Below, piece by piece: positions 27,001-45,000 of a stretch of 47,822 nucleotides of DNA. Location of the stretch: NCBI GenBank assembly GCA_964397315.1, contig CAYNHV010000007.1, positions 1-47,822 of the forward strand. The letters are read 5' to 3'. Each line of letters begins with the position of its first letter. Within the stretch, counting starts at the first letter, position 1. Origin of the DNA: an uncultured Methanosarcinales archaeon. Lineage in GTDB: Archaea > Nanobdellota > Nanobdellia > Woesearchaeales > UBA12501. The position numbers are program-made.

Positions 27001-30000
27001 GCCTATGTGCAGCCTGAACCTGGGCAGTCTTGTCCTGTTCCTGACAGGTATGGTGAGGTTGATTGTCTCATTTGCTGCTGCGCTCTCTTTTGTAAGATTG
27101 TGTTCAATATCCCCCTCTACCCATACCGGCTGGGTTGCGGTGGAGTTATGGTGGAAGCTTATCACGAAGCTGTCATTTATCCTTCCTATGAAGGTGAAGA
27201 ATGTCTCAAAATCCTCCTCATCCTTTATCTTCTTACCTACATGCTTGTTTTCGCTGTCACTGATGCTTTCGTTGACTTTGGGTTTCTGAACCCCTGCAGC
27301 AGAATCAGATTTTTCTGAATTGTTTGTGGGGGTACTTTTTGCTGCAGGGGTTTCTGAGAGATTGTTATCCTTTTCAGCCTGTTTTTCAGGCTCTTGAGCA
27401 TCCTCAGGCTCCTTCACAATGAAGCTTGTGGAAAGCTCTTTTGTTATGTTCTCCTGTTGTATTACCGCGATGACAGTGTAATTTCCCACCTTTTCAACAG
27501 GAAAATCCTTTGACACAGCCACAAGAGCGCCGTCCCTGAGCACCTCTACTGAATGATTAGAGCTTGCAGGAACCACAAAAACATGGGCCATGTCTCCAAC
27601 ATCATACTCATCACTTCCTGTGAATACTTCTGCTTTCTCAAGCGCTGCGTGGCCTGTTATTGAACCCATATATCCTGAGGTATAGAGGAATCCCAGTATG
27701 CCAAGTGCTGTCAGTATAAACAGTATCTGGCCGAGTGTTGCCTTCCTATTCCCCATGGCTTTTATCATCCTCTTTTTCTGAATCGCTTACTGCAAGTATT
27801 ATAGAATCCTTTGTGTGGTCCTTGAACTCCATGCGAATGCCTTTGCCCCATCCCTTGAACTCAGCAAGCCTTTTGGGTATTGTTATGATGAGCTGGCCGT
27901 TTGGGAGCTTTTGTATTCTTACCATTGGAGATTATTAATATTCAGAAGACTATTCGTTAGAATATTTGAAATACTATTAATTTTATTAATCAAAAACATA
28001 TTTAAAAGACTATTTGATACAATATTATTTAAATGTTTCGCTTATTATCCCAGCGTTGCGCAGGCGACAAGCACCCATCTGGTTTTGCCGGCACTTACAG
28101 CAAAATTAATATACCCATGAAACAAGCAAGCCCTTATGGAGCCATGGACAAGAAAATACCAGCCAAAGAACACTGCTGAGGTGACAGGCCAAAAAGAGGC
28201 TGTCAGGAATGTGAGGGAGTTCATAGCAGACTACAGGAACAAGAAAAAGAGAGCAGCAATAATACACGGCCCTGTAGGATGCGGAAAGACAGTCTCAGTA
28301 TACGCAGCTGCCAATGAGCTCGGACTTGAGATAATAGAGGTGAATGCCTCAGACTTCAGGAACAAGGACCAGATAGAGTCAGTAGTCGGCTCAGCCTCGC
28401 AGCAGATGTCGCTCTTCTCAAAAGGCAAGGTCATACTTATAGACGAGATAGACGGGCTCAGCGGAATGCAGGACAGGGGAGGCATCTCAGCTCTTGTTAA
28501 GCTGATAGACAAGACAGCATTCCCCCTGATATGCACTGCATCAGACCCATTTGACAAGAAGTTCTCTGCATTAAGGAAAAAGAGCACAATGATAGAGTTC
28601 AAAGAGCTTGACCACAAGCACATATTTGAATCCCTTAAATCAATATGCGGCAAGGAAAGCATAAAATTCAGGGAGGATGACCTGAAGACACTCTCAAGGA
28701 GGGCTGGCGGAGACTTGAGGGCTGCGGTAAATGACCTTCAGACGCTTGCAGAGGGAAAGAAAGAGCTTGTTAAGGAGGAGATGGACAAGCTGAGCCAGAG
28801 GGAGAGGACAGAAAGCATACTCAATGCAGTGATGAAAGTCCTGAAGACAACAGACCCCTCAATAGCAATAAGCTCATTCAACAACATTGAAGAGGACTTT
28901 GACGAGGTAATGCTCTGGATGGACGAGAACATGCCAAAGGAGTACAACAAGCCAGGTGACCTTGCAAGGGCGTATGATTACATCTCCAAGGCAGACATCA
29001 TGAGAAGGAGGATAAGAAGATGGCAGCACTGGAGGTTTCTTGCTTATGTCAATGCTTACCTTTCAGCGGGCATCGCAGTGTCAAAGGATGAGAAATACAA
29101 AAAGTTCATCAGGTACGGGCCGACAAAAAGGCTGCTAAAGATATGGATGGCAAACAGGAAATACCAGAAGAGAAAGGCAATAGCCGAAAAGGTTGCTGAG
29201 AAAACCCACTCCTCAGCAAAAAGGGCGCTGCACGACACGCTGCCCTACCTGCAGGCCATATTCCAGAAAGACATTGACAGCGGAATGAAACTTGCAGACT
29301 GGCTTGAGCTTGACAGGGAAGAAGCAGAGTGGATGTGCGGGTGAATGCGGGGTAAATGCGCGCTACGGTTGTTCTTTAAAATCTTCAGACTCCCTTACTT
29401 AATCGTCGTCACAGGCCTGGCCTGCAGTATGTACACCTTGCCAGCCTCTATGGCCCACTCTATGTCCATCGGGATGCCATAGTGCTTCTCAATATCTTTT
29501 GTGAACCTTGTCAGGGCTTTTGCTTCCTTTTCATCCAGCACTTCAATGTGGCCGTGCTCAATGCTTCTCTTCTCTGTCTTTCCCTCCCTGTTCCTGAAGT
29601 AGCCCCACTCAAGTTTCCCTATGCTTTTGTCCTTTATGTCGTGGCTCTCCTTGTGTATTATGTAAGAATGGGGTGTCAATTCACCGGCAACAACCGCTTC
29701 TCCAAGGCCGTAGGCTCCCTCTATTATTATCTCCTCCCTGCTGTTTGTTACCGGGTTGACAGAGAATATCACTCCTGCCTTGTCTGCATTGATCATCCTC
29801 TGAACAACAACAGCAAGATATACCTTCTCATGAGGAAAGTTGTTTCTCTGCCTGTAGTATATTGCCCTTGGAGTGAAGAGAGATGCAAAGCATTTCTTTA
29901 CTGCCTCAAGAACATCACCCTCCCCTTTTATGTTGAGGAATGTGTCCTGCTGGCCCGCGAAGCTCGCATCAGGAAGGTCCTCTGCTGTTGCAGAGCTTCT

Positions 30001-42000: not shown

Positions 42001-45000
42001 GGACTCCCTTTCAGGCAGTATAAGTGTGGTGTAAATCCTGTTTATATCCTTTATTCCATTCTCTTTGCAGAACTTTCCCAGCTTCTCGGTCATTTTTCTC
42101 TCTGAGCCGAGGATAAAAGGGTCTATTATCATGTCAATCTTCCTGCACTTCAGCACAGTCTGCCATGCCCTTTTGTGGAGGTCAAAAAGCTCTTCATCAG
42201 GCATCTGGCTGAGGTCCCTGCTCTTTACTTCCTCGTACAGTTTCTCATACTGCAGGCGGTGTTTCTTCCACTCACTGAACCATCCTTCCAGCCATTTCCT
42301 GTCACTTCTGTGCCTGCTGATTATCTCGTCCGATAAAACATCCTGATCCTGCTCTGGCGTGAGCCACCATATTCTGTTGTTTTCGCAGAAGATCAGAAGA
42401 ACGCTGTATTGTTTCTCAAGAGGATCCAGATGCCTTAAGGACTGGCCTGCCAGGCTGGCGAATACAGGGTTACCCTCTGCTGACTCCTCATACCATTCTT
42501 TGTTTTTGTATTTCTCTTTGATACCCATATTTTAGTCACTTTATTATTTTAATTTATTAAATTATCTTACCAGTTCCTTTCAAAATATATGAACGCGAAG
42601 ACGAGGAGAATGGGCCACTTAAGAAAGCCCCCTACAAATAAGAGGGCATATACTGTAGCCACAAGCAGGAGCATATTGAACAGCAGGTTTTTCCTGGTCT
42701 TGGATATGTGATTCTTGTAGCTCTTGGCGCTGAGACTGTCTTTCCATTGAAAATCTTCTTTTGTGATTCTGACCACCTGATTCAATTATTCCTTAGGTAA
42801 ATATAACACCGCCCAAAAAAGAGCATTCAGGGCATCCCAAAAACATAGCCAAGATACTCCCGGTCACCTTCTCCTGGATGGCAGCCGTACATATTGTTGA
42901 CATACTCAACAGGATTATGCCATCTGAGCATCATTTTCCTGCATTCTGATACAGTTGGAATCACGCTATCAACTGAATGTTCTGCGCCCCTGAAACCCAT
43001 CTTCATGCCTTTGATATCATCTATGTTATGGTCAACAATCAAATCAAGGCCTTCTCCAGGATTGAAGTTTCCACCCATGCTTCTTATATCCCTGTTTCCT
43101 GTAAGCATTGCGAGCCCTGCCTCAAGAAGCGGGGCATGGCTTATCCCCTCAATTCTGGCACCGTCCTCTACATCATCTGTGTTCATGACAGAAGCAAGAT
43201 GCACAATGATGTTCCTGCCAGCAGCATACATGTCTCCCCTGCTTCCATCCCGCTTCTTCCACTCATTGTCTAACCAGTACTGTATAATATCATCCCTGTC
43301 AGTTATCCCTTCAGGCTCAGGAGGATCAAGAGGGCTCAAGGCATAAGCAGGAAGAACCCTTTTATCATATCCATAACCTTTAATTATGTTCTGCCCTGTC
43401 TGGACAGCCCTTTCAACAGGAGATGAGTATACCTCAATTGAGGGATGCTCTTCCCTAAGCTTTTCACCTAATTTTCTGCTGGCCTGTACGCCCTCATTAG
43501 TGAGGTTACCGTCAGGCCCCTTTTTACCATGCCTTCTTACTGAATAGGTTACTCTACTGATATTGCTCATTTTCACCACCTGGGGGTTACATAGTTATCA
43601 CACATATTTAATACTTTTTAGTTTATTTTCTTACATTTACGCAATATTTATATAGAAATAACCCAAAATACTGCTTTTATGGCCTTCAAACTTGACCTCA
43701 AGGACAGAAAGCTCCTCACCCTTCTGGATGAGAACTGCAGGCAGAGCAACTCTCAGCTGGCCAGAAGAGTGGGGCTGAGCAAGCCTGCTGTTGAGTACAG
43801 AATAAGAAGATTAGAAAAGCGTCAGGCAATATTTGAGTATTACACTGTAATAGATTTCACAAGGCTGGGGTTTTCACAATACAAACTATACTTCAAGTTT
43901 CAGAACGCTACCCTTGAGGAGGAGAAACAGATAATTGAGTATTGGAAGGGATCAAAGAATATTGTGTGGGTTGCTCAGCTTAGGGGGAGGTGGGACCTTG
44001 CTGTGTCGGTGCTTGCAAGGTCAAACTTTGAGTTCGGAAGGATACTGAGCAGGTTTATGAACAGATACTCAGGATTCATACTTGACAAGGATGTGCTTCT
44101 TACTGAATACTCACCAATCTATGCAAGGGAATACATGACAGACACAGAACCAAAAGAGTTCATGTATGGCATTCCTGGAGGAAAATACAATCCTGACAGC
44201 ATAGAAAAGAAACTCCTGAGGCAGATATCAACAGACGCGAGGATTCCTATATTTGAGCTCTCAAAGAGGACAGGCCTTACAAGAGACATAATAAACTACA
44301 GGCTGAGGAAGCTCTCAAAGGATAAGATAATAGACCAGTTCAGGTGCTATCCCAACCTTGAGGAGATAGGCATAAACCTCTACAAGATAATATTCAGGAC
44401 AAAGAATCTTGATGAGAAAGCTGAAAAGGAGATAAAGGCATATGTTTCAGCAAACAAGAAAGCCCCTCAGATGCTCAAGCTCATTGGATCATGGGACCTT
44501 GAGATTGAGTTTGAAGTTGAGAATGAGGACGAACTCTACAAGCACCTGGCAGACATCAGGAAAATGTTCTCCTTCATCATAAGGGATTTTGACATAATAA
44601 GAGTGACGAGGATCTGCAAGTATGATTACTTCCCCTTTTAAGCTGAGCTTCCAAAAACTATATAAATAAAGGAAAAGGATTATCAAACCATGACACTCAC
44701 AATAGACCAAATGGCAACATTCTGCAAGAAAAAGGGGTTTATCTATCCCTCTGCAGAGCTCTATGGCGGGCTGGCAGGATTCTATGATTACGGCCACCTT
44801 GGTGTTGAGCTGAAGAGGAACATTGAGGAGCAGCTCTGGAACCGTTTTGTAAGGTCAAGACGCGATATAGTCGGCATTGACGGCGCTATAATCACAAGCC
44901 CGAGGGTCTGGCAGGCATCAGGACATGTTGACTGCTTTGAGGACATAATGATTGAGTGCTCCAAGTGCAGGCAGAGGTTCAGGGGAGACCACCTCATAGA

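Follow-up and report, generated by a model that had tools for sequence, protein, structure and literature searches.

Among the closest described relatives of the locus analysed here are two-component homologues of rifampin phosphotransferase (RPH), of which HpeHI, CreHI and the phenylphosphate synthase PpsAB have been characterised. In the available portion of that source (PMC12167813), phosphate passes from ATP via a histidine to the acceptor in all three systems, two-component HpeHI is active in vitro, and HpeH is reported to form homodimers. In RPH, mutagenesis established the importance of Lys22, Arg117 and Thr136 (PMC4844700, available portion), and in the same excerpts all characterised RPH-type members phosphorylate hydroxyl or enol oxygens (PMC12167813, PMC4844700). 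Although an earlier note on this DNA had presented a trans-acting split dikinase as a novelty, that idea is not new, as HpeHI, CreHI and PpsAB set the precedent in the part of PMC12167813 available.

The window, a stretch of 47,822 nucleotides, comes from the genome of a small symbiotic archaeon (1.47 Mb in 61 contigs, 93% complete). Its minus strand carries, between positions 29395 and 42528, a free-standing PPDK_N gene, five tandem paralogs of 476-526 aa that end in a phosphohistidine swivel domain (modules), and a PTA_PTB gene (Table 1). These positions and domains, claimed earlier, are borne out by our ORF calls and Pfam matches. Genome-wide profile matches also confirm a sixth paralog on contig C4 and a single further PPDK_N: this domain occurs twice, in g619 and in a complete PpsA on contig C3 (PPDK_N, PEP-utilizers and PEP-utilizers_C, PF02896), and PEP-utilizers occurs seven times, five in the window, once in the C4 paralog and once in PpsA. 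Overlaps of 4 nt join g630, g629, g628 and the Pta-like g627 in succession, as well as g626 and g625, and the stop of g620 shares 1 nt with the start of g619. The small ORF g624 overlaps the g625 stop by 14 nt; we found no family match for it, and a homologue was seen in G003 only.

Table 1. Genes of the array and the module paralog encoded elsewhere in the genome
Feature	Position	Strand	Assignment
g619	29395..30333	-	Free ATP-grasp (PPDK_N, E 6.1e-111), 312 aa
g620	30333..31163	-	276 aa, weakly HAD-like; conserved cassette member
g621	31160..32242	-	Serine alpha/beta-hydrolase (esterase/lipase/thioesterase-like); hydrophobic N-terminus
g622	32316..33479	-	Tandem left-handed beta-helix (hexapeptide) acyl/acetyltransferase, 387 aa
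g624	33819..34124	-	101-aa ORF, reality uncertain
g625	34111..35691	-	Substrate-domain + swivel module, 526 aa; PEP-utilizers 443-513
g626	35688..37133	-	Module, 481 aa; PEP-utilizers 405-474
g627	37135..38145	-	Pta-like (PTA_PTB), cluster-specific subtype; PF01515 E 2.2e-90
g628	38142..39620	-	Module, 492 aa; AF2-modelled
g629	39617..41047	-	Module, 476 aa; PEP-utilizers 400-470
g630	41044..42528	-	Module, 494 aa, first gene of the array; PEP-utilizers 417-488
Sixth module paralog	C4:30223-31716		PEP-utilizers match

PPDK_N is the sole Pfam match of g619, which shares 40% identity with the N-terminal part of PpsA from the same genome and matches RPH 5fbs with an E value of 5.8e-65. In the alignment, its K21, R112 and T131 correspond to RPH Lys22, Arg117 and Thr136 (RPH-Lm numbering). 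Free homologues from relatives are 44-82% identical to it. Scores against the model for rifamycin-inactivating phosphotransferases (NF041857) are 293 bits for g619 and 62-76 bits for the modules, all under the 999-bit cut-off. By Pfam, neither g619 nor any module contains the PEP/pyruvate-binding domain PF02896.

In the window paralogs, Pfam matches are confined to the last ~70 residues (PEP-utilizers, E 1.4e-24 to 1.6e-27). BLASTP and a motif check agree with the earlier figures of 27-36% identity among the six paralogs and a swivel His in each. The five in the window all keep T..EGG...HAAI, the corresponding motif of the C4 paralog is TDEGGILCHAAI, and the His is present in 33/33 aligned modules. 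All six frames are full-length and intact. Their swivel domains are 46-62% identical (mean 54%) and their substrate domains 13-24% (mean 18%), the contrast that would be expected of sequences that all dock one loader and bind different acceptors. A profile built from the N-terminal domain without the swivel, and hence stricter than the earlier search, matches 7045 cluster representatives at E<=1e-3 (5366 at E<=1e-10), in keeping with the previous estimate of more than 5000 members for this large, uncharacterised family. The accompanying claim that the family is shared with Patescibacteria is supported by one named record among 20 matches.

The predicted fold of g628 resembles that of RPH. Our AF2 model of g628 (pLDDT 91.2, pTM 0.87) has RPH structures 5fbu, 5fbt and 5hv1 as its best Foldseek matches (E 1.4e-13 to 1e-12, TMq 0.46-0.54), figures that match those obtained earlier. 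VIA-align superposes residues 6-479 of the model on residues 321-867 of 5fbt, which comprise the rifampin-binding and swivel domains (Z 19.4, rmsd 4.9, 414 residues). A profile built from 33 modules also finds RPH 611-866 at the sequence level (E 3.4e-31). Of the RPH second-site residues, Glu667 and Lys670 align with the D and K of a D-x-R-K motif in the family; Arg666 aligns with Q, and the modules have an Arg two residues downstream. An acidic residue is retained at the first motif position in 29/33 modules, and the R and K in 28/33 each. The motif is contained in WQDERK at 279-284 of g628 and reads DERK in g625, EERK in g629 and DLRK in g630. In g626, D-R-K-K stands at this position, with acid, Arg and Lys shifted by one, and the C4 paralog lacks D-x-R-K in the alignment.

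The best explanation of this locus, and in our judgment probably the right one, is a split RPH-type dikinase in which one ATP-grasp serves many modules that act together with an acyl-transfer and hydrolase cassette. What the analysis establishes directly is the domain composition, the fold, the retention of catalytic residues, the gene counts, the fusions and the shared cassette; loading in trans, which way the reaction runs and what kind of acceptors are used are inferred. In the proposed cycle, g619 would bind ATP and pyrophosphorylate the conserved His of a swivel domain, which in each paralog follows a diverged RPH-like substrate-binding domain of that paralog's own. The loaded swivel would then swing back and hand phosphate to the bound acceptor, leaving AMP and phosphate as products. 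Because each module has its own swivel and its own substrate domain, and g619 is predicted to charge the swivels, a single ATP-grasp could serve all six in trans.

We compared 41 genomes of the same order, using profile matches and simple ORF calls; the module-profile counts include the PpsA swivel. Ten of the 41 have at least six module-profile matches, and eight of these ten encode exactly one strong non-PpsA ATP-grasp (seven free, one fused). Of the other two, one has an ATP-grasp cut at a contig end and none was found in the other; two strong non-PpsA ATP-grasps occur in none of the ten. Across related genera, module number ranges from 1 to ~17 and gene order is not conserved; the phylum-wide search scored at most nine candidates per genome. 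In G001 (91% complete, 130 contigs) we found five or more modules and no free ATP-grasp, and G009 has a free ATP-grasp and no match to the module N-domain. Among the best 150 of the 7045 N-domain matches, seven proteins join one PPDK_N to two to six swivels, none contains two PPDK_N domains, and 36 contain at least two module stretches. An ORF of 4201 aa in G199 combines eight swivels with one grasp, and further grasp-module fusions were found in G169 (2265 aa), G092 (at least 1695 aa), G159 (1617 aa) and G024 (1641 aa). In related genomes, then, one ATP-grasp would serve up to ~17 modules, or two to eight fused with it in a giant protein. Because both the gene counts in relatives and the natural 1:2-8 fusions point to one loader for many modules, the architecture and the one-to-many idea put forward earlier are supported, and this loader/module design is both new and well supported. 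In three relatives (G013, G016 and G004) the ATP-grasp adjoins a shorter swivel protein of 327-365 aa whose N-terminus is unmatched by our module queries. Because of this adjacency, the shorter protein could be the loader's primary partner where it is present; none was found in the genome of the window.

The genes g620 to g622, missing from the earlier note, form a conserved cassette. The order grasp, g620, g621, g622, modules, Pta-like gene, modules recurs in G013, G003, G002 and G201, and g625 has close orthologues in G013, G003 and G016. The protein encoded by g620 has no Pfam match and a marginal one to TIGR01491 (E 0.001); its homologues hold the same position in those four genomes with the shared order. 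No Pfam family matches g621, in which GHSSG, D297 and H323 are invariant in 6/6 homologues. Although its AF2 model has a mean pLDDT of only 60, the core superposes on alpha/beta-hydrolases (best 5h6g, Z 16.2 over 211 residues), and among the best 50 structure matches (Z 13.5-16.2) every title that names a fold or activity is that of an alpha/beta-fold hydrolase. Homologues of g621 occur in 7/41 related genomes, each with a module expansion. The product of g622 matches Hexapep (E 3.3e-10), and NCBIfam relates it, in two stretches, to heptaprenylglyceryl phosphate O-acetyltransferase (111 bits, cut-off 300) and further to the Pls/PosA terminal domain and WcaF. Its homologues adjoin modules in ten genomes (G013, G016, G012, G003, G002, G201, G183, G128, G104 and G106).

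A possible but doubtful alternative is that the modules make up one machine, assembled here as a hetero-oligomer and fused into one polypeptide in relatives, which carries out several steps on one pathway, polymer or lipid, with the Pta-like protein, the hexapeptide transferase and the hydrolase as extra stations. Fusions of two to eight modules are indeed common (36 of the best 150 N-domain matches; ORFs of 2815 and 4201 aa), and in protein P0022, a natural module-Pta-module-module fusion, the Pta-like domain sits between modules. Conservation of the cassette across several families of the order, translational coupling of the window genes and the homodimers reported for HpeH (PMC12167813, available portion) fit as well. 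However, a copy number of 1 to ~17 and a shuffled gene order speak more for interchangeable units than for an assembly line of set composition, the substrate domains are only 13-24% identical, and no carrier-protein-like part was seen. The earlier proposal that six units phosphorylate six independent small molecules is nevertheless unproven: a joint pathway or complex fits at least as well because of the frequent module fusion, the translational coupling and the conserved acyl-transfer and hydrolase genes.

The gene between the modules had been called a phosphate acetyltransferase. Although g627 matches PF01515 over its full length and 4e4r with an E value of 5.9e-67, it is a diverged, cluster-specific paralog that falls under the equivalog cut-offs for Pta (290 bits against 310 for NF007233, 258 against 311 for TIGR00651). 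It has PVAILGRS in place of the P[VI]NDLSRG of Ptas encoded outside module clusters. The cluster-linked sequences read PV[AMVS]ILGR[ST], or PIVIYGRS in G183, and have Gly for the NDLSRG Ser in 11/11 cases. We take this Ser to be Ser309, the catalytic residue in the Methanosarcina enzyme, and its replacement by Gly casts doubt on ordinary Pta activity. The cluster-type Pta adjoins modules at all loci seen (G000-G003, G012, G013, G016, G201, G153 and G183).

Such proximity raises the prospect, which we regard as unlikely, that acyl phosphates link the two activities. The modules would phosphorylate carboxylates, and the Pta-like protein would turn the resulting acyl phosphates into acyl-CoA on which the hexapeptide acyltransferase draws, or acetyl phosphate produced by the Pta-like protein would load the swivel His without ATP. 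That g627 is the only PTA_PTB of the genome, in which no acetate kinase was found at 93% completeness, is consistent with this, as are the invariable adjacency to modules, the fusion in P0022 and the conserved neighbours, a transferase that uses acyl-CoA and a thioesterase-like hydrolase. Succinyl-CoA synthetase, too, combines an ATP-grasp with a phosphohistidine and an acyl phosphate. The loss of the motif Ser argues against such a link, a cluster-type Pta is missing from G023 and G024 although both have modules, and the conserved ATP-grasp points to ATP as the donor; moreover, the oxygens phosphorylated by characterised RPH-type members are hydroxyl or enol ones (PMC12167813 and PMC4844700, as excerpted). 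That only part of the paralogs partner g619, the others being decaying duplicates, phosphate buffers or regulators and not kinases, is improbable: the C4 paralog lacks D-x-R-K in the alignment, and truncated or swivel-less copies occur in relatives (G004 fragments and a 2815-aa multi-module ORF in G023 whose first module is swivel-less), but 6/6 paralogs keep intact frames and the His motif, 5/6 keep acid, Arg and Lys at the second-site motif (shifted in g626), and the 5366 representatives at the stricter threshold speak for selection on the N-domain.

Within the favoured split dikinase, the modules would cooperate with the Pta-like protein of altered catalytic motif, the tandem hexapeptide acyltransferase, the serine alpha/beta-hydrolase and the HAD-like protein. 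The system would then probably phosphorylate and acylate or de-acylate several molecules, small or lipid-like, that are related to one another, not six unrelated ones. We give little chance to a modular phosphohistidine machine of one ATP-grasp, many swivels (up to eight on the 4201-aa polypeptide) and Pta-like, hexapeptide and thioesterase-like parts with undescribed chemistry. If it existed, it might activate carboxylates, with acyl phosphates leading to acyl-CoA and then to acyl transfer, or else remodel, step by step, lipids or metabolites that genome-reduced archaea scavenge from their hosts.

Among known enzymes, PpsA is closest for the ATP-grasp (40%) and the swivel (43-56% identity, GG.T.HAAI), but the modules lack its PF02896 barrel and carry the swivel after the substrate domain, not before it. 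The prodiginine ligases PigC and RedH (NF052631, NF052632), in which phosphoryl activation drives a condensation, share the RPH-type domain order. They are single chains of ~880 aa, however, with cut-offs of 1300-1350 bits against which g619 scores 229-255 and the modules 59-90, and no pyrrole pathway genes are present here. RPH-Lm (5fbs/5fbt/5fbu, 5hv1) has counterparts for all three domains, a C-terminal swivel, the ATP-site residues retained in g619 and a common substrate and swivel fold. Unlike this single chain, the present system is split into g619 and six modules, its substrate domains are only 14-17% identical to that of RPH-Lm, Arg666 is unmatched in place and NCBIfam scores lie far under the cut-off for RPH. 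In an archaeon, rifampin would not be expected as the substrate. HpeHI, CreHI and PpsAB agree with the present system in having a separate ATP-grasp subunit and a second subunit that combines an RPH-like substrate domain with a C-terminal swivel His. As far as the available portion of PMC12167813 describes them, each is one pair for one phenolic substrate class, has a module of ~70 kDa and belongs to aromatic catabolism. Here, one loader faces six modules of ~480 aa in a DPANN archaeon, among acyl-transfer and hydrolase genes, and in relatives the ratio reaches ~1:17, or 1:8 in fused form.

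Within the gene array, the stop codon of one gene runs into the start codon of the next, by 4 nt at g630/g629, g629/g628, g628/g627, g626/g625 and g621/g620 and by 1 nt at g620/g619; the only sizeable gaps measure 73 nt (g622/g621) and 339 nt (g624/g622). Pfam finds PPDK_N alone in the free-standing ATP-grasp gene g619 (E 6.1e-111), PTA_PTB in g627, and in each paralog of the window only PEP-utilizers, confined to the final ~70 residues (E 1.4e-24 to 1.6e-27). The genome (1.47 Mb in 61 contigs, 93% complete) contains two PPDK_N matches, g619 and a PEP synthase (PpsA) on contig C3 that is complete with all three PpsA domains. 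The seven PEP-utilizers matches are the five window paralogs, one paralog on contig C4 and the same PEP synthase. The paralogs, or modules, share 27-36% pairwise identity; for g619 and the N-terminus of the genome's own PpsA the figure is 40%. ORF, Pfam and whole-genome counts thus agree with the gene array, domain content and paralog set described in the earlier note.

Positions of the gene array and of other features in the window, the rest of the genome and related genomes
Feature	Location	Strand	Description
Gene array	29395-42528	-	order from 5' end: g630, g629, g628, g627 (Pta-like), g626, g625, g624, g622, g621, g620, g619
g624	between g625 and g622		101-aa ORF, doubtful
Cluster-linked Pta-like subtype	window 37135-38145; L027, L032, L033, L014, L020, L022, L041, L044, L045		motif x-I-[LY]-G-R-[ST]
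Sixth paralog	C4:30223-31716		solitary
Large ORFs upstream of cluster	window 20992-27768, 11910-17888, 9949-12087, 5353-6675	-	2258, 1992, 712 and 440 aa
His_Phos_1 gene	window 42827-43579		
AsnC-type regulator	window 43679-44641		320 aa, two AsnC-type HTH stretches
Shorter swivel proteins	L010:3187-5510, L013:2353-3450, L024:179-1276 (in G013, G016 and G004)		327-447 aa
Further modifying genes	L014:17715-19025, L014:5366-7042, L010:9815-10570		among relatives' modules
Free ATP-grasp of G009	G009:C36:18107-18997 (L026)		313 aa
Fusion ORF of G199	L037:7314-19919		4201 aa
Fusion ORF of G169	L038:2446-9243		2265 aa
Module ORF of G023	L017:2320-10767		2815 aa

With 33 modules from this genome and its relatives as input, AlphaFold2 modelled g628 at a pLDDT of 91.2 and a pTM of 0.87. 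The model's first six Foldseek hits were structures of rifampin phosphotransferase (RPH; E 1.4e-13 to 3e-11), followed by swivel domains only. VIA-align placed residues 6-479 of the model on RPH 321-867 (5fbt; Z 19.4, rmsd 4.9 over 414 residues), a stretch that comprises the rifampin-binding domain and the swivel, and the 33-module profile matched RPH 611-866 by sequence (E 3.4e-31). The swivel His is invariant (33/33). In the profile alignment, a (Q)-D-x-R-K motif sets its D against RPH Glu667 and its K against Lys670; Arg666 is aligned to the Q, and an Arg is present two residues further on. The D/E is kept in 29 of the 33 modules and the R and K in 28 each. In the RPH study, Arg666-Glu667 proved essential to the second phosphotransfer (PMC4844700). 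D-x-R-K is present in five of the genome's six paralogs, offset by one position in g626; the solitary C4 copy keeps the swivel His and lacks the motif in the alignment. Three relatives encode shorter swivel proteins directly downstream of a free ATP-grasp. Their N-terminal part was not matched by module N-domain (substrate-domain) queries, and the type is absent from the window's genome.

The whole of the ATP-grasp protein g619 can be aligned with RPH (5fbs, E 5.8e-65), and its match to archaeal PEP synthases is stronger still (8a8e, E 6.4e-84). Residues K21, R112 and T131 align with RPH Lys22, Arg117 and Thr136, which position ATP according to mutagenesis (PMC4844700). A predicted complex of g619 and g628, both entered as alignments and run without controls, had scores of 0.30 and 0.20 where the mark is 0.32, a result that bears on binding in neither direction.

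We asked how ATP-grasps and modules are distributed in 41 genomes of the same order. At least six module-profile matches, a count that includes the PpsA swivel, occur in ten of them (G000-G004, G012, G013, G016, G023 and G024), with a maximum of 18-19. Exactly one strong non-PpsA ATP-grasp is present in eight of these ten, free in seven (open frames of 307-366 aa) and fused in one. The single ATP-grasp of G002 is interrupted by a contig end, and none outside PpsA was found in G001 (91% complete, 130 contigs). No expansion genome has two strong non-PpsA ATP-grasps, and G003 and G016 each have one additional weak match. The window's own genome devotes six genes to modules, and relatives as many as about 17. 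The genomes also encode fusions: an ORF of 1641 aa in G024 carries an ATP-grasp followed by three swivel-bearing modules, and the giant ORF of G199 carries eight swivels and one ATP-grasp at its C-terminus. Further fusion ORFs are a giant one of tandem dikinase modules in G169, one of at least 1695 aa in G092, one of 1617 aa in G159 and a plain grasp-module fusion of 799 aa in G011; an ORF in G023 joins six modules without an ATP-grasp, and that genome encodes its free grasp at another place. Sorted with our own HMMs, the best 150 matches of an exhaustive N-domain profile search comprised 103 proteins with one module, 11 with an N-domain alone and 36 with several modules; among the last, seven had one PPDK_N stretch (by Pfam) with 2-6 swivels and none had two. 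Finally, identity among the genome's six paralogs is 46-62% in the swivel but only 13-24% in the substrate domain. Genome counts, fusions, the classification of the best 150 matches and this difference in identity lend real support to the claim that one ATP-grasp serves many modules. Separately, G009 has a free ATP-grasp and, at E<=1e-10, nothing that matches the module N-domain; its one swivel protein (386-aa frame) lies away from the grasp.

In the most likely mechanism, g619 would pyrophosphorylate the swivel His of every module, and the gamma phosphate would then be lost. The loaded swivel would return to the substrate domain of its module, and the D-x-R-K site there would help hand the phosphate to the acceptor.

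The array also contains a conserved set of accessory genes. The cassette of grasp, g620, g621, g622, modules, Pta-like gene and modules recurs in G013, G003 and G002, and parts of it in G012 and G016. In G201, from another family of the order, 38 kb hold one free grasp, 11 full modules, two shorter swivel genes, a Pta-like gene and homologues of g620, g621 and g622; parts also occur in G153, G183, G128, G104 and G106. Neither g620 nor g621 has a Pfam match even at E<=1. A protein-atlas search suggested an alpha/beta-hydrolase for g621 (score 0.89, weak taken alone), and motif and predicted fold bear this out: GHSSG, Asp and His are invariant in six of six homologues, and among the best 50 alignment rows of its model (best Z 16.2; mean pLDDT 60, the core alone confident) the titles that name a fold or activity are alpha/beta-fold hydrolases. 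Homologues of g621 were found in seven of 41 related genomes, every one with a module expansion. The g622 product is a tandem hexapeptide-repeat transferase, and g620 is at best weakly HAD-like. Relatives' clusters contain additional small-molecule-modifying genes, among them one SGNH/GDSL-like hydrolase and two methyltransferase-like proteins (all weak matches) and one clear HAD_2 phosphatase. Perhaps the modules work within one pathway or complex, possibly on hydrophobic or lipid-like molecules: they are often fused, they are coupled to a Pta-like domain, and an acyltransferase and an esterase-like hydrolase always lie alongside, but the fast turnover of module copy number and order fits interchangeable units of differing specificity.

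The Pta-like gene g627 is the sole PTA_PTB of its genome and scores under the NCBIfam Pta cut-offs; no acetate kinase was found in the genome. PTA_PTB proteins of relatives fall into two kinds, ordinary ones at 357-451 bits (exceptions in G010, G009 and G015 at 308-332 bits) versus cluster-linked ones at 296-322 bits, and G001-G003 have both. In an alignment to 4e4r, all seven sequences encoded away from clusters carry N-D-L-S-R-G, whose Ser is presumably the catalytic Ser309 of the Methanosarcina thermophila enzyme. None of the seven has the motif of the cluster-linked kind, which is found in 11 of the 11 cluster-linked sequences where this position is visible, including those of G201, G153, G183 and P0022, a natural fusion of 1836 aa in the order module, Pta-like, module, module. 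These sequences mark the cluster-linked gene as a subtype of its own. A link by acyl phosphates through the Pta-like protein is a less favoured reading. A reverse reaction that would form ATP from acetyl phosphate was rejected on an estimate of the energetics.

In the window's genome, G003 and G013 the cluster is bordered by RFC and ProRS, a placement that speaks for vertical descent within the family. The neighbouring His_Phos_1 and AsnC-type genes have no homologue in the relatives' loci examined, and we rejected both as parts of the system. Upstream lie very large ORFs that are probably surface proteins: the 1992-aa ORF has two Laminin_G_3 stretches, those of 712 and 440 aa have one apiece, and that of 2258 aa has no Pfam match. 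PADLOC, run on seven cluster proteins, matched none and so ties the array to no known defence system.

Of 1.84 billion cluster representatives searched exhaustively with the N-domain profile, 7045 match at E<=1e-3; the number is 5366 at <=1e-10 and falls to 2436 at <=1e-30. The earlier note's large family therefore stands, but its figure of 5053 was probably owed largely to the swivel domain; a word-index search with the g628 N-domain alone gave 20 matches among 4570 candidates. Among 201 genomes of the phylum, each at least 90% complete (nine with at least nine candidates), 35 have an N-domain match at E<=1e-10: the window's own, three others in its family, 29 more in its order and two more in its class. 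Named close homologues are Woesearchaeota and Nanoarchaeota records; the proposed presence in Patescibacteria was not confirmed, with that label on one of 20.

DPANN archaea rely on uptake and trapping of host compounds. If one ATP-grasp indeed loads many modules, this would open a first mechanistic route into a large set of their genes annotated "PEP-utilizing enzyme" or hypothetical. The family numbers at least 7045 sequence clusters, has no characterised member and includes giant proteins in which a single ATP-grasp is joined to as many as eight swivel modules. Under this model, one loader protein could be tested directly against a panel of modules, and the Pta-like protein without acetate kinase poses a second testable question.

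A literature search of main texts found nothing on the swiveling domain in DPANN, and titles and abstract openings on PEP-utilizing proteins in Woesearchaeota held nothing relevant. Rifampin phosphotransferase in archaea or DPANN led to one survey of CPR bacteria, with rph gene counts only, and two-component dikinases led to work on aromatic catabolism only. In these searches nothing in print was found on a one-to-many RPH-type dikinase with an accessory cassette. The trans-acting split, proposed as new in the earlier note, is itself already known: HpeHI was characterised in 2025, in a study that describes HpeI as the ATP-grasp and HpeH as an RPH-like substrate domain with swivel, both required, with a dead His mutant and with HpeH alone swapping phosphate between substrates (PMC12167813). 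We conclude that the feature is real: an RPH-type dikinase of two components, one-to-many in its make-up and accompanied by a conserved cassette of accessory genes. Whereas the split RPH-type dikinases on record are one-to-one pairs from bacteria that act on phenolic substrates, the system described here is one-to-many and belongs to an archaeon.
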